From sequence record PV287714.1: DNA of 64,000 bases; one strand, given 5' to 3'. The position numbers and the translations under genes are program-made. Below, piece by piece: positions 11,130-54,782 of the stretch (the first letter of the stretch is position 1; each line of letters starts with the position of its first letter). The notes beneath the pieces were generated by a model. That model was not told where the DNA came from. It saw only the letters and a program-made list of their open reading frames with translations, and did not search any database. The DNA is from Escherichia phage HMD-9.

Positions 11130-11732
11130 TTATAGATTAAATCCTTCAAAATCAAGAGTATAGATAGTGTATGTTGAATGCTTTTTATACTCATATCTAT
11201 CTGCAATTCTAAATACACTTCCAGCTGGTATCATTACTTCTTGTTCATCTGAAACTAATTCCATATTACGATAGCGATGGCTATCCGGAAACTTAAAACT
11301 CGGACTATATTCTTTACAACGTAGAGCTTTTATAGCATACTCCTGAAAATTAAATACCATAGGAGCTTTGAATTCAAAAATAACTTGTGTGTTGTATTCT
11401 AATCCAGAAGCAAAATGTAGAGCTATATTTTTATCATATGAAGCTGATACTACTTTATCAAATGTAATAATATCAATTCCTTGATTTAACACCTGCTTAG
11501 TCTCAACTGGAACACCTCTCCAAAGAGGTTTATCGTTTGGTTCCAAACGAGATTTGATTATTTCATTTAACCAAGAATGATCGTCTGGCTTATTAGTAAT
11601 ACAATGAATTAAAAGTTCAATTTCAGATAAATTAAATCCTTCAGAAAGTAATTCTTCACGAATAGAAGCACGCACCGATGCATCCATTGATTTGATTTTA
11701 AAATCTTTTAATTGCATTGCTGAATATTTCAT
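11130..11732 (-). CDS. modA: ADP-ribosyltransferase ModA
   Basis: 200-aa track ORF, lower-coordinate member of tandem ADP-ribosyltransferase pair as in T4. Confidence 0.8.
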   Translation of the reverse strand: MKYSAMQLKDFKIKSMDASVRASIREELLSEGFNLSEIELLIHCITNKPDDHSWLNEIIKSRLEPNDKPLWRGVPVETKQVLNQGIDIITFDKVVSASYDKNIALHFASGLEYNTQVIFEFKAPMVFNFQEYAIKALRCKEYSPSFKFPDSHRYRNMELVSDEQEVMIPAGSVFRIADRYEYKKHSTYTIYTLDFEGFNL

Positions 11733-12364
11733 TCAACTACCTCAATATCATACACTTTAAATGTTCCAAACGAATCGTGTAATTTTTCTTTTGAAATAGA
11801 AGTTATTTTATACTTTCCAATTGGAATCATCCATTCTTGTTCACGCACAATCATCATTAAGTTATCAGTACGTTCTGAATCTAATCCATCAGTATCTTCA
11901 TATGTATACTTAAACTCAGTATTAGGAGAAGAAAGTATAATATCGCTGATATGGTCAGAGTAATTAAAAGCTTTATCAGTTTTTAAGCGAAGTACTATTT
12001 CAGTGAAATATTCAGCATAAGAAAAAGAACACGCTGTATGCAAACTAGTAGTAAATGAATCTACTCTGTTCGTTGAAAACACTTCTCCAACTTGTAAATC
12101 TTTAATGAGTTCTTTTGTCGATTTTGATATACCACGATATAGCTGATAAGGCGATTTAGTTAAATGCTTTTTAACGATTTTATTCAACTGCCGATGAAGA
12201 GCTTCATTCTTTTTGGCTTCCATACATTGCCAAAGAACTGACTGCTCAAAGTCAGTAAATTTTTCACAGACTTTTTTATACATATCATATTGAAAATCGA
12301 CACTTTCAGCTTTTATAGATAACTGTTCAACATCTGCAAGATTAATAATCATGATAGCCTCCAT
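11729..12364 (-). CDS. modB: ADP-ribosyltransferase ModB
   Basis: 211-aa track ORF, paralogous to ModA, 4-nt overlap. Confidence 0.8.
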   Translation of the reverse strand: MEAIMIINLADVEQLSIKAESVDFQYDMYKKVCEKFTDFEQSVLWQCMEAKKNEALHRQLNKIVKKHLTKSPYQLYRGISKSTKELIKDLQVGEVFSTNRVDSFTTSLHTACSFSYAEYFTEIVLRLKTDKAFNYSDHISDIILSSPNTEFKYTYEDTDGLDSERTDNLMMIVREQEWMIPIGKYKITSISKEKLHDSFGTFKVYDIEVVE

Positions 12365-12378
12365 ATACTTCAGAAGCT

Positions 12379-12408
12379 ATCATATCATTGTTAGGAAGGA
12401 AAGTAAAC
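12379..12408 (-). promoter_or_regulatory. T4-type early promoter
   Basis: Reverse complement GTTTACtttccttcctaacaatgaTATGAT. Confidence 0.55.
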
Positions 12409-12419
12409 AACTTTTTGAA

Positions 12420-12602
12420 TTATTTTGCCCAGGGAGCCCAGGGCGGAGGGTCAAGATGGTATGAAGCTAGTTCTTCTAGAAGAGCATCTGGGGCTTCAAT
12501 TCCATAATTCTGTAATACTATACGGTACTCTTTCTTATAATCACTAGAATCATTCTGGATATTCGTAGAATGATTATCTTCTAACATCTCAAATAAATCC
12601 AT
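12420..12602 (-). CDS. hypothetical small protein
   Basis: 60-aa track ORF. Confidence 0.45.
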   Translation of the reverse strand: MDLFEMLEDNHSTNIQNDSSDYKKEYRIVLQNYGIEAPDALLEELASYHLDPPPWAPWAK

Positions 12603-50350: not shown

Positions 50351-51331
50351 TTATTTCAGAAGAGTAACCTCAGCAATTTCTTCCCAACCGTTTTTGTCGG
50401 TCATAATAAAGTCAGCAAGATAAAGAGCAGTACGCAGTGAAACATTGCGTAAACGATTAACATTAACTTTCATCCATGATAATGCTTTATAAGTTTCTTC
50501 ACTAGAAAGACCGCGCTTTTGCATCATGTCAGTTGAAAGAATAACATCTTCAACCCTGACCATAATTTCTTCATTAGTGTGAACACCCAAATCCAAATAA
50601 ACTGAGCGGGACACTAATGCTTGTAAGTGTGGAGCAAGTTTAGTACCGCGGTCTAATTCGCGGTCAATGTCAACGTTTGTGATAAAAACAATCGTTCCTT
50701 TAAATTCAAACTCACGGTCAATGCCTTTTTCTTCTAAGTAAGAAGATGCAGTGCTCCAGCAGACTTTACGGGTCTCTCCAGTGTCCAGAGCAGCTTTTAG
50801 AAGATTAAGAATGTCCATATCAGAGAAAACATCCACATCATCAATCAAAAGGACAGAATTCTCTTCACGATTATTCCAAAGCTGTTCATAAAGACCAATA
50901 CCAGAGATTTTACCATTAATGCTTTTATATTCAATGTATCCAATATCATTTGCTTTATTTAAAGCTTTATCTAAAGAATACGTTTTACCAATACCTGCTG
51001 CGCCAGAGATAATTAATGAACGAATATTTCCATTAATAATACCGTTCGTCATCATTCCCATAACATTAAATCTTTTATTAATGCGGGTTTTCATATCTTC
51101 ATATGATTCTTTAACTTCTTCAACTTTTACACCATCATATGAAATATCTGATTTGTAAACCCAAACACCGCGACGTTTACCGTCAATTTCAACAAAAACT
51201 TTACCATCTCCTTGTGCATCTACCGGAGCATTATCTGGGAACCATTCGCCTAAGAGCTCAAAAGTTCCAGAGATTTCTTTACCGAAGTAGATACCCTTAT
51301 TGATAGTTACAGTTTTCATTTTATTCTCCAA
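50351..51331 (-). CDS. P-loop NTPase (AAA-like ATPase)
   Basis: 326-aa track ORF; Walker A GAAGIGKT and Walker B LLIDDVD. Confidence 0.6.
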   Translation of the reverse strand: MENKMKTVTINKGIYFGKEISGTFELLGEWFPDNAPVDAQGDGKVFVEIDGKRRGVWVYKSDISYDGVKVEEVKESYEDMKTRINKRFNVMGMMTNGIINGNIRSLIISGAAGIGKTYSLDKALNKANDIGYIEYKSINGKISGIGLYEQLWNNREENSVLLIDDVDVFSDMDILNLLKAALDTGETRKVCWSTASSYLEEKGIDREFEFKGTIVFITNVDIDRELDRGTKLAPHLQALVSRSVYLDLGVHTNEEIMVRVEDVILSTDMMQKRGLSSEETYKALSWMKVNVNRLRNVSLRTALYLADFIMTDKNGWEEIAEVTLLK

Positions 51332-51411: not shown

Positions 51412-51439
51412 AAAAAAGGGGACCTCTAGGGCCCCCTTT
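51412..51439 (-). terminator. rho-independent terminator
   Basis: ggggacc-tcta-gggcccc hairpin flanked by A run and T run. Confidence 0.55.
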
Positions 51440-51447
51440 GTGTTGAT

Positions 51448-51933
51448 TTATTCCATTTCTACTATATGCATGTTCTTTTTGCTATCAAAATATATGTTTT
51501 TAACTATTAACTCAGAATTAATTGGCAGTAAAAACTCTCTTTCATAATCTACCATACAAAGGTTATCATAAAGCTTGTTAAGCTTATCATCGTCAATTTG
51601 ACCAGATTCTTCAATTGCGATTAAATTTTCTAAAATGTCAATCATAGCAGTCGAATAGTCGAAAACGTTTGCATTTTTTAACACTACTAAAACATTAGTC
51701 ATATAGCGTTCTGCCGCAAACGTTTCAGCTATATGAGACTCACTGCTAAAGGAAGTTATTCTTTTAAATTTGATTCTCCTATTAACTTCAAACTTATAAG
51801 ATAGCACTTCCTCTATTGTAAGTCCTCTAAAAAGTGTGTCTTTAATCTCAAGTTTGTCTTTAATGTAATCATTAACACGCTTATGATTAAAATCATTAAT
51901 TTTGTTGCCAAGGCATTGCATTAAAATATGCAT
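51448..51933 (-). CDS. hypothetical protein
   Basis: 161-aa track ORF. Confidence 0.5.
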   Translation of the reverse strand: MHILMQCLGNKINDFNHKRVNDYIKDKLEIKDTLFRGLTIEEVLSYKFEVNRRIKFKRITSFSSESHIAETFAAERYMTNVLVVLKNANVFDYSTAMIDILENLIAIEESGQIDDDKLNKLYDNLCMVDYEREFLLPINSELIVKNIYFDSKKNMHIVEME

Positions 51934-51979: not shown

Positions 51980-52009
51980 ATTATAATATGCTTTGCGGCA
52001 GAAGTAAAC
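51980..52009 (-). promoter_or_regulatory. T4-type early promoter
   Basis: Reverse complement GTTTACttctgccgcaaagcata TTATAAT. Confidence 0.5.
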
Positions 52010-52038
52010 AACTTTGTGACGTCATTTTAAACAAAAAA

Positions 52039-52056
52039 GGGAGCCCGAAGGCTCCC
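52039..52056 (-). terminator. rho-independent terminator (UUCG tetraloop) downstream of nucleotidyltransferase-like gene
   Basis: gggagcc-cgaa-ggctccc followed by U run on minus strand. Confidence 0.6.
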
Positions 52057-52058
52057 TA

Positions 52059-53072
52059 TCATTTATAATAACTTCGGTGGTTTTCAAGATAAACCCTCTC
52101 AAGGAAGTCATCCCAGAAACCCATGTCTACTTTTTGCTGCATACCGTTCTTAGAAGCTTCAATGGATGCTGCTTCTACTTGATCGACCACATCTTCCAAA
52201 AACTCTTGAACAGTTTTAAATGGATGTTTACCCAGCTTCACGTCGAGAATAAACGGAGCATCTTGGAGTGGATAAACCAAGTCGCCAGTTTTGTAAATTT
52301 CCAATAGTTGGAGTCCACCACGACAAGCATGACTCAGAGCTTTCCAATCAATGCCTTCGTTAGCTTCAGCTTTACGAGCGCGTTCACCATATTCAGCATC
52401 GAGTTTATTCAAAGACTGCTTAAGCTCAATAAGAGAAAGTGTAGTCTGATATTTACGACCCAACACAGTATAGAACGTTTGCGGGCCTGTTTTCTCATGA
52501 TTATGGAATACCCATTCACAGAATTCGTTTTCTGGAAGACGGTGTTTAATATCTGCAATTTTAGTACGACGTTGTCCTTGTGTTCCATCTTCTCGGTAAT
52601 CAACCCACTGATCGGGGATTTGATTAACTACTTTCAATACATCACGCAATGCGGCCAAACGAGAACCCTTAACACCATATTTAGAAGCTTGCTTGCGGAC
52701 ATATCCTAAATAAGATTTCATGTTAGTTGTATAAAAACGAGAACGATTGTCTTGAATAAACTTCCATACATCAGGCAAATCAGATTTAACTACCAGTTCA
52801 GGTGGAGTGTGGAGCATATCCAATGCTACGGTTTCACCATCTGCTGCTAATTTAAAGAAATACTTAAGACTGTATAGTTCATGGTCAATATCATCTTTAG
52901 TGTTTTTAGATGATGTGTTGTTAGTGTTTTTGCTCATATGCTCTTTAACATTTCCAATAAGAATATCACGAGCAGGAGGAACAAAGATTTCTTTAAAATC
53001 TACATCAGATTCTGGAGTAGAAGTTCCATAAAGATGACTACCAAAATAGCTTTTCATTACTGTTTTCATCAT
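52059..53072 (-). CDS. nucleotidyltransferase-fold protein (Pol-beta superfamily signature)
   Basis: 337-aa track ORF; N-terminal GSHLYGTSTPESDVDF fits GS-x(9-13)-DxD minimal nucleotidyltransferase motif. Confidence 0.6.
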   Translation of the reverse strand: MMKTVMKSYFGSHLYGTSTPESDVDFKEIFVPPARDILIGNVKEHMSKNTNNTSSKNTKDDIDHELYSLKYFFKLAADGETVALDMLHTPPELVVKSDLPDVWKFIQDNRSRFYTTNMKSYLGYVRKQASKYGVKGSRLAALRDVLKVVNQIPDQWVDYREDGTQGQRRTKIADIKHRLPENEFCEWVFHNHEKTGPQTFYTVLGRKYQTTLSLIELKQSLNKLDAEYGERARKAEANEGIDWKALSHACRGGLQLLEIYKTGDLVYPLQDAPFILDVKLGKHPFKTVQEFLEDVVDQVEAASIEASKNGMQQKVDMGFWDDFLERVYLENHRSYYK

Positions 53073-53452
53073 TCAGCCTTATATTCAATAACAGGACATA
53101 CTTTAGCTTTACGCGCTTTTAAAAATTCGACGATAATAGATTTCTTTGGTTGAATAGGAGGTAAACCTTTATACGCCCTATCAATATTTTCTACATGTAA
53201 AGCATAATCCTTTTTCCATTTATAATCTTTATATTTTTCATGCAGTTGTGCAGGAATAACAAATGAACCGATAATAAGTAAAACAAGCAAAATAGCAAGT
53301 ATAAATGCTGATGGAATAAGAGTCCATAAACTACCAAAAATAAGCCATTTCTGTATGATTTCTGCACAGATGATAGTTAGACCTGCGAGTATAGTACATC
53401 CGAAAAAAGAAACAAAAATGTAGGAATAACAATAGACCAAAAATACGCGCAC
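53069..53452 (-). CDS. hypothetical membrane protein
   Basis: 127-aa track ORF, two or three TM helices. Confidence 0.5.
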   Translation of the reverse strand: MRVFLVYCYSYIFVSFFGCTILAGLTIICAEIIQKWLIFGSLWTLIPSAFILAILLVLLIIGSFVIPAQLHEKYKDYKWKKDYALHVENIDRAYKGLPPIQPKKSIIVEFLKARKAKVCPVIEYKAE

Positions 53453-53531
53453 AGTGTCTTAGGTCGTTTCCATTCGTCGTTAAACATTTTGAATAATTTA
53501 TAATGCCAAGAGCTTTCATTAATAATCATAA

Positions 53532-54053
53532 TTATCCTTTCATTGAAGGTGTAACAGTTGTTAAATACTTAATCATAGCTTCAGCTTCTGATTTTGATAA
53601 TGAAATTTCTCCATTGTTTTGACGAATAGAAATAAAATCCGGATGACGGTCACCACCAGCTTTTAAAATACACATATAAGTATCAGTTTCATCTTCAATA
53701 TCTGAAATGATTGAAGCAGTTCCGCATGAATGTGGTTTTTGATAAATCAATGCAGCTTTTCTTCCACCGTTTGACTGTTCATAAACTTTTAACACATCAA
53801 ACAAATCACTTCTTTTATCAATAGCTAAGATGTTGTTTTCATCTTCAATGTTAAATCCTTCGGATACTTCATAAAGTGTCACCCATAAATCGCCAATATC
53901 AATGACAGCATTCACCTTTCCATGATTTTCAAGAGCATTACAAATTTTCTTAATTTCATCATAACTCATTTTAATAATATCATCTCCTTGAATAAGGAAG
54001 ATGTCATTTTTAAATTCAACACGAATTAAACCGCTTTCACTTGAAATAAACAT
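53532..54053 (-). CDS. hypothetical protein, tandem paralogue A
   Basis: 173-aa track ORF; C-terminus SKSEAEAMIKYLTTVTPSMKG parallels neighbour. Confidence 0.5.
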   Translation of the reverse strand: MFISSESGLIRVEFKNDIFLIQGDDIIKMSYDEIKKICNALENHGKVNAVIDIGDLWVTLYEVSEGFNIEDENNILAIDKRSDLFDVLKVYEQSNGGRKAALIYQKPHSCGTASIISDIEDETDTYMCILKAGGDRHPDFISIRQNNGEISLSKSEAEAMIKYLTTVTPSMKG

Positions 54054-54059
54054 ATTTCC

Positions 54060-54617
54060 TCACTTTGAAATCATAGTTGGAATGACAGAATCAAGATAAG
54101 TCTTTAGCGCAATAGCTTCGTCTTTGGTAAATGTGACAATATGTGATCGAAAATCGTCAATTTGGCGAATAATTAAGACATCTCCCTCTTCATAACATTT
54201 TGATACATTTAAAAGAGTTTCATCATTCTGATCGCAAGCATTAGTAATAATAGCATTGCAATTTTTGAGCCATTTTAAACTATGTTTTCTTTCATTAGAA
54301 TAATAAAAATATTTAATCTTAGCTATAAAACTATCCCAATGAATAACTGATAAGCACATTGACTCACTTTTAATATTAAATCCTGGGCATGAAGAATAAA
54401 AATGAATTTTGTGCTCATCATTGATGCTTACTATTTTATCAGTATAAGGATATTCAATTTGGGTTAAATGAATGATTTCACTAGGCGTAAAATACAGCAT
54501 ATCGTCTTCTTGCGTCAAACGATACATATTATTTACTTTTTCTATAGCCAATTCACCAAAAAGCGGACTAACTTCTAATACTAATCGTTTCATATTGATT
54601 CTCTTCGACTCACTCAC
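54060..54617 (-). CDS. hypothetical protein, tandem paralogue B
   Basis: 185-aa track ORF; C-terminus TKDEAIALKTYLDSVIPTMISK. Confidence 0.5.
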   Translation of the reverse strand: MSESKRINMKRLVLEVSPLFGELAIEKVNNMYRLTQEDDMLYFTPSEIIHLTQIEYPYTDKIVSINDEHKIHFYSSCPGFNIKSESMCLSVIHWDSFIAKIKYFYYSNERKHSLKWLKNCNAIITNACDQNDETLLNVSKCYEEGDVLIIRQIDDFRSHIVTFTKDEAIALKTYLDSVIPTMISK

Positions 54618-54752: not shown

Positions 54753-54782
54753 ACTATATCATAACCTTGCCAACTTGTAAAC
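54753..54782 (-). promoter_or_regulatory. T4-type early promoter
   Basis: Reverse complement GTTTACaagttggcaaggttatgaTATAGT. Confidence 0.55.

Follow-up and report, generated by a model that had tools for sequence, protein, structure and literature searches.

The 337-aa protein encoded on the minus strand at 52059..53072 in Escherichia phage HMD-9 is orthologous to NrdC.11 of phage T4 and is, through its N-terminal domain, a long-form member of the RlaP family of nucleotidyltransferases. By analogy with characterised RlaPs, NrdC.11 most likely extends RNA 3'-OH ends by a nucleotide or two in the course of tRNA repair, acting together with Pnkp and Rnl1. That NrdC.11 is a predicted RlaP-family nucleotidyltransferase is already known: COG3541 nucleotidyltransferase matches were reported for nrdC.11 orthologues by Nolan et al. 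2006 (PMC1524935), and a December 2025 preprint identified T4NrdC.11 as an RlaP in similarity-network cluster 5, the enzymes studied there belonging to cluster 1a (PMC12776372). Our own additions are modest, and consist of the recognition of a long-form clade with a differing C-terminal half and of the finding that bacterial repair operons often pair this clade with a short RlaP. Coordinates refer to the window, by which we mean the whole 64,000-nucleotide stretch of HMD-9 DNA that was analysed (PV287714.1).

The HMD-9 protein is the orthologue of T4 NrdC.11

The gene and its stop codon lie as follows.

52059..53072, minus strand: NrdC.11 orthologue, coding sequence of 337 aa from the first ATG (open reading frame list)
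52061..52059, minus strand: its stop codon, TAA

The product begins MMKTVMKSYFGSHLYGTSTPESDVDF. In the T4 annotation the start is the second ATG (53069 here), which gives 336 aa, and over these 336 aa the T4 and HMD-9 proteins are 96% identical, with 13 substitutions. T4 NrdC.11 (NP_049709.1) is described as an "uncharacterized 38.9 kDa protein in the nrdC-mobD region", and the gene is annotated "nucleotidyltransferase" in RefSeq. The two proteins are equal in length, and their genes share a place between the mobD.x genes, which lie upstream, and nrdC.10, which lies downstream. The immediate flanks differ, T4 having the mobD homing endonuclease upstream of nrdC.11 and no 161-aa Mod-like gene downstream. 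At residue 61 T4 NrdC.11 has N, while D61 is found in the HMD-9 protein and in at least 90% of the family; this residue falls within a conserved KNT-x-DD-x-D segment. The T4 reference NrdC.11 (11436..12446 in our locus L002) has an X in its translation, which implies an ambiguous base in the T4 record.

The surrounding region is that of a Tequatrovirus (T4-like), and its best matches are mosaics at 96-97.5% identity. PHROG 388, "nucleotidyltransferase", matches the full-length protein (E 8e-136), and homologues were found by tblastn in 1513 phage records, from T4-like phages of Escherichia, Klebsiella, Aeromonas, Acinetobacter and Vibrio as well as some jumbo phages. The original prediction had looked to T4 both for a homologue and for the possibility of a conserved ORF whose function was already assigned and unrelated. 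The homologue exists, is conserved and carries an assignment, but as a predicted nucleotidyltransferase it is not an unrelated one.

Database labels for the family vary. Many GenBank and UniRef entries name NrdC.11 homologues "thioredoxin", as they do other nrdC.N genes, with up to 12 "thioredoxin" genes in one phage record, and the homologue in phage ZCEC14 carries the label "putative HNH homing endonuclease". Because no thioredoxin family in Pfam or NCBIfam matches the protein, these labels look like name-propagation errors, and we infer that "thioredoxin" spread from the gene name nrdC.11.

The N-terminal domain has the fold and conserved residues of a Pol-beta nucleotidyltransferase

The features of the N-terminal domain are listed here.

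52668..53054, minus strand: N-terminal Pol-beta nucleotidyltransferase domain, residues 7-135 (Pfam RlaP match)
52995..53042, minus strand: GS...DxD catalytic motif GSHLYGTSTPESDVDF with G11, S12, D23 and D25 (conservation and pattern scan)
52884..52886, minus strand: D63, near the beginning of a predicted strand (62-68), probably the third carboxylate of the active site

The original prediction rested on a GS...DxD signature with which the protein was said to start. The signature is present, but it occupies residues 10-26 and not the extreme N-terminus (FGSHLYGTSTPESDVDF); it consists of FGS (10-12), with a hydrophobic residue at position 10, then 10 residues, then DVDF (23-26), in agreement with the superfamily motif. 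We scanned 365 six-frame ORFs of at least 50 aa (37,561 aa), covering the whole window, and the strict pattern hG[GS]-x(9-13)-Dh[DE]h picked out a single ORF, 52059..53072, while a loose form of the pattern occurred 3 times. Given these three occurrences, the motif by itself is weak evidence, and it is the family profile and the structure that confirm it.

Conservation was assessed in an alignment of 47 diverse homologues sharing 33-56% identity. Residues G11, S12, G16, S22, D23, D25, N57, D63, Y124 and Y132 are invariant, as are R231, K244, H248, R251 and P268 further along the protein, and D61 and D85 are nearly so. A profile comparison (hhalign) pairs D63 with D73, which is invariant in short RlaPs, and D63 probably completes the catalytic triad of carboxylates with D23 and D25.

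An AlphaFold2 model built on the same alignment (pLDDT 93.7, pTM 0.80) runs from strand 3-10 through GS and a short helix to strand 24-31, with D23 and D25, and strand 62-68, with D63; this modelled order of strands and helices is the arrangement of Pol-beta nucleotidyltransferases. Nucleotidyltransferases were the top matches when the fold of the model was compared with known structures, a check that the original prediction had proposed, and the alpha/beta core of the model superposes on solved members of the superfamily (clan CL0260). No relative came up when the PDB was searched by sequence and by profile, and no RlaP chain when it was searched by fold, in a copy that evidently lacked the PfRlaP crystal structure. 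Membership of the Pol-beta nucleotidyltransferase superfamily, the central claim of the original prediction, is thus borne out by the Pfam RlaP profile, the AlphaFold2 model and the invariant catalytic residues.

NrdC.11 is a long-form RlaP with a distinct C-terminal half

The Pfam RlaP family (PF10127) matches residues 7-135 at 43.7 bits (cutoff 23, E 3.6e-11), and is matched by 46 of the 47 diverse homologues. NrdC.11 belongs to a large family: at E<=1e-3, an exhaustive HMMER search gathered 3432 cluster representatives, the majority of them full-length and about 310-350 aa long. The match does not extend over the whole family model. NrdC.11 covers positions 23-142 of the 249 in PF10127, and its long-form bacterial relatives about 20-146, as against 5-248 for short RlaPs. 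When profiles of the long and short forms were compared with hhalign, only query columns 6-131 aligned (probability 93.5%, E 2e-7). The C-terminal 219 aa have no significant match in Pfam; they contain the following features.

52443..52616, minus strand: beta-rich insertion of five strands, about residues 153-210 (model)
52062..52442, minus strand: C-terminal helical bundle, about residues 211-337 (model)
52320..52349, minus strand: invariant DWK-x3-H-x2-R motif, residues 242-251 (47-homologue alignment)

In the model, the five-strand insertion is preceded by a long helix (119-150). The insertion is absent from short canonical RlaPs and varies in length across the long-form clade.

The window holds no short RlaP paralogue, and none of the 80 records that matched a short-RlaP query came from an Escherichia, Shigella or Salmonella phage. 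Among phages, short RlaPs belong chiefly to those of Pseudomonas, Brevundimonas, Caulobacter and Burkholderia, and most of the listed genomes exceed 250 kb.

Some long-form RlaPs lie beside short RlaPs and RNA-repair genes in bacteria

Full-length homologues, 32-54% identical to the query, were found at 156 loci in bacterial and archaeal genomes. Forty-six of these loci had adequate flanks for an analysis of neighbours, in which 136 neighbouring proteins were scanned against Pfam. The commonest neighbour family was RlaP itself. In 9 of the 46 loci a short canonical RlaP of 254-277 aa stands immediately downstream on the same strand (L035, L007, L018, L033, L050, L052, L057, L072 and L073), and in 5 of the 46 an RNA ligase, either RtcB or a Pnkp ligase, lies within three genes. 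The fullest arrangement is that of a Nitrosospira sp. (L035, 4712..10158), with the order RtcB-RtcA-long RlaP-short RlaP-Hen1; Pnkp with a ligase domain is found near the long RlaP in L052, L029 and L066, and RtcB in L049.

A genome has no more than one or two copies of such RNA-ligase and repair genes, and by a rough estimate they are enriched near long RlaPs by one to two orders of magnitude. The association with RNA repair therefore holds for the NrdC.11-type clade itself, beyond the short forms. It was seen for the bacterial long-form members and not for the phages examined. That long and short forms adjoin in bacteria suggests that the two are non-redundant.

NrdC.11-type long RlaPs may even form a class functionally distinct from the characterised short RlaPs, a reading that would suit their separate C-terminal module and their frequent pairing with a short RlaP in RtcB/Pnkp/Hen1 operons; we consider this possible, if on the unlikely side. 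Such a class would be marked by the five-strand insertion and by a HEPN-like bundle with the invariant K244, H248 and R251, and candidate jobs for the class include specific recognition of damaged tRNA, choosing which nucleotide to restore, work at a different end of the RNA, or the nucleotidylation of a HEPN ribonuclease. If so, T4 would carry just the specialised half of a long/short pair.

A proposed role in tRNA repair

The RlaP family takes its name from its genomic association with RNA ligases. In jumbo phages, the distribution of RlaP parallels that of RNA ligases (PMC7824862). The biochemistry of the family comes from the RlaPs of P. fluorescens and P. aeruginosa (PfRlaP and PaRlaP), which add 1-2 NMP to RNA 3'-OH ends in vitro, best with Mn2+, and act neither on DNA nor on E. 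coli proteins (PMC12776372). They label rRNA-sized species, full-length tRNA and cleaved tRNAs with little NTP specificity, favour the broken-anticodon 3' end of a nicked tRNA mimic over the acceptor end, and increase the aminoacylation of a tRNA ligated after the loss of one nucleotide (PMC12776372). The crystal structure of an RlaP comprises an N-terminal nucleotidyltransferase domain and a C-terminal helical domain (PMC12776372). [quoted passage not shown]

We propose, by analogy with these enzymes, that NrdC.11 supplies the step between the two T4 repair proteins. Pnkp would first heal the broken tRNA ends. NrdC.11, with two divalent metal ions held by D23, D25 and D63, would use NTPs to attach one or two NMPs at the 3'-OH of the broken RNA, refilling the nucleotide lost from the 5' tRNA fragment after RloC-type wobble-base excision, and Rnl1 would then close the nick. 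On this proposal T4 could do without nrdC.11 in the laboratory and would need it only against hosts that carry nucleotide-excising anticodon nucleases. Several points tell against the repair role. Only the N-terminal ~130 residues of NrdC.11 align with characterised short RlaPs, and the C-terminal 200 differ. Long and short forms stand next to each other in bacteria, and in phages nrdC.11 is unlinked to RNA-repair genes and its neighbours vary. RlaPs add nucleotides in vitro without a template and with little NTP specificity, which would make them inefficient at restoring the wobble base faithfully. T4 also stays viable after deletion of the nrdC.11-mobD.3 region (PMC9825161).

The same chemistry could serve another job at RNA 3' ends, namely mending the 3' CCA ends of tRNAs damaged by host toxins, or tailing host or phage RNAs to alter their stability. 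The breadth of RNAs labelled by the Pseudomonas enzymes would suit such a job, as would the fact that the gene is unlinked to RNA-repair genes in phages. Against it, neither the CCA-adding enzyme families nor the PolyA_pol head domain are matched (Pfam and NCBIfam, E<=0.1), the characterised RlaPs choose the broken anticodon over the acceptor end, and the enzymes to which the bacterial clade is linked, RtcB, Pnkp and Hen1, are those of repair and not of decay. We therefore judge a job of this kind unlikely, and tRNA repair remains our preferred reading.

The phage locus is a putative transcription unit with variable neighbours

The features around nrdC.11 in HMD-9, from the promoter end downwards, are as follows.

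54753..54781, minus strand: candidate promoter, sigma-70-like TTTACA-17-TATAGT with TG (consensus scan, best upstream site)
54060..54617 and 53532..54053, minus strand: tandem T4 y05I-like "putative transcription factor" paralogues (PF24449 and PF24448, E down to 1e-38)
52032..52057, minus strand: intrinsic terminator with an 8-bp G+C-rich stem, UUCG loop and U-run (terminator scan)
52008..51980, minus strand: promoter-like site of the 161-aa Mod-like ORF
51448..51933, minus strand: 161-aa Mod-like ADP-ribosyltransferase ORF (PHROG 832, E 6.5e-24)
51439..51415, minus strand: terminator of the 161-aa Mod-like ORF
50351..51331: nrdC.10 homologue, P-loop ATPase (weak AAA/STAND matches, PHROG 1250)

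The terminator stands directly after the TAA stop of nrdC.11, where the minus strand at 52057..52038 reads AGGGAGCC-UUCG-GGCUCCCU, followed by UUUUUU to 52032. Its hairpin has a predicted stability of -18.3 kcal/mol (z = -4.19), which none of 200 shuffles equalled. The UUCG-loop terminator that the gene was said to be flanked by is thus real, and is found on its 3' side only. The scan gave no minus-strand terminator-like site between the candidate promoter at 54753..54781 and 52057, and this promoter may serve a unit made up of the two y05I-like genes, a membrane-protein gene and nrdC.11. In some RefSeq records the y05I-like genes are mislabelled [quoted passage not shown].

The membrane-protein gene (53069..53452, minus strand) overlaps the start codon of nrdC.11 (ATGA). 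In HMD-9 this gene (53069..53529, minus strand) is split into a 50-aa and a 127-aa ORF by a 1-nt deletion between 53413 and 53414, a C missing after a T-run in comparison with phage HY01, where the counterpart is intact as a single 153-aa "signal-peptide domain-containing protein". The frameshift may be genuine, making the gene a pseudogene, or it may stem from a sequencing error in the homopolymer. In T4 (NC_000866, 56429..57208), the HNH homing endonuclease mobD lies directly upstream of nrdC.11 and overlaps it; the HMD-9 segment at about 53069..53530, with the membrane gene in the place of mobD, is a mobD-free allele.

Downstream, the 161-aa Mod-like ORF sits between the nrdC.10 and nrdC.11 homologues. 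It has no match in Pfam and is 26-33% identical to the ModA/ModB ADP-ribosyltransferases of other T4-likes; it is absent from the T4 reference, and only about 43 phage records contain it at >90% identity. Bracketed by a promoter-like site and a terminator of its own, it looks like an inserted moron cassette encoding an extra, divergent ADP-ribosyltransferase.

The original prediction had placed the gene next to a P-loop ATPase and membrane proteins. A membrane-protein gene does adjoin it, upstream and frameshifted, but the ATPase is not adjacent, being separated from nrdC.11 by the Mod-like gene. Neither this ATPase nor this membrane gene was found beside the NrdC.11 homologues of RB43, Vibrio phage phi-Grn1 and Klebsiella phage Miami. 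Because the neighbours differ in these phages, the ATPase and membrane genes reflect synteny and not a functional system. No RNA-repair gene is linked to nrdC.11 in the window or in the other phages examined, and the Pnk and Rnl1 genes of T4 are encoded elsewhere than at the nrdC.11 locus.

Protein, small-molecule and signalling substrates

NrdC.11 could instead resemble KNTase or MntA in architecture, with a nucleotidyltransferase domain joined to a HEPN-like helical one, and nucleotidylate a protein or small molecule, for example by AMPylating and thereby neutralising a HEPN ribonuclease of the host, of which an anticodon nuclease would be one, or by modifying a metabolite; the fold is shared with such enzymes, and nucleotidylation of a host target had been one of the two activities suggested in the original prediction. 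The structural matches to these proteins are weak (TM 0.2-0.33), and generic helix bundles reach Z values at least as high. The NCBIfam MntA model gives 13.2 bits, far under its cutoff of 60, and matches the GS..D segment only, so nucleotidylation of a host target finds little support. NrdC.11 is moreover a 337-aa protein with a fused C-terminal module rather than a small single-domain one, has no adjacent HEPN gene, and stands in no antibiotic-resistance or toxin-antitoxin context, and the Pseudomonas RlaPs left E. coli proteins unlabelled (PMC12776372). We consider this very unlikely.

Synthesis of a cyclic or linear signal, the other activity first suggested, or of a decoy that mimics the Hailong HalB oligodeoxyadenylate against host defence, likewise has little support and is very unlikely: the likeness is confined to the generic nucleotidyltransferase core with no sequence-level match in the PDB, there is no CD-NTase/SMODS match in Pfam, no PADLOC match, no CD-NTase among the structural matches and no effector gene nearby in the window, and the family context is RNA repair.

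Implications for the T4 repair pathway

The T4 Pnkp/Rnl1 pathway is the founding example of phage counter-defence by RNA repair. If NrdC.11 restores the missing nucleotide, T4 repair would run on three enzymes, and one more step would be added to the arms race in which phages answer anticodon nucleases. Such a nucleotide-restoring role for NrdC.11 in T4 repair has already been predicted by others. The long-form clade may act differently from the short RlaPs that are paired with it in bacteria.

Comparison with known systems

Several solved or characterised nucleotidyltransferases offer points of comparison. Hailong HalB (9dbh), at 217 aa, is without the C-terminal module and is 16% identical to NrdC.11, with no sequence-level relationship; HalB belongs to a defence system, whereas NrdC.11 is encoded by a phage and has no HalA-like partner. 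KNTase (1kny), LinB (3jyy), ANT(4')-IIb and 3c18 resemble NrdC.11 in architecture, each having a Pol-beta nucleotidyltransferase domain followed by an up-down helical bundle. They differ in that NrdC.11 matches none of their sequence families, superposes on them with TM of only 0.24-0.33 and has no resistance context; the substrate, a small molecule for the kanamycin-type, lincosamide and aminoglycoside enzymes, is presumably RNA for NrdC.11.

A further comparison is with the RlaPs themselves (PF10127). NrdC.11 differs from the characterised members in its five-strand insertion and in a distinct helical domain with DWK-x3-H-x2-R, and the long form, at about 310-350 aa, exceeds the 254-277 aa of the nine adjoining short RlaPs. 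It shares with them a nucleotidyltransferase domain with GS, DxD and a third Asp followed by a C-terminal helical domain, and its clade has in common with theirs the linkage to RtcB/RtcA/Pnkp/Hen1 operons.
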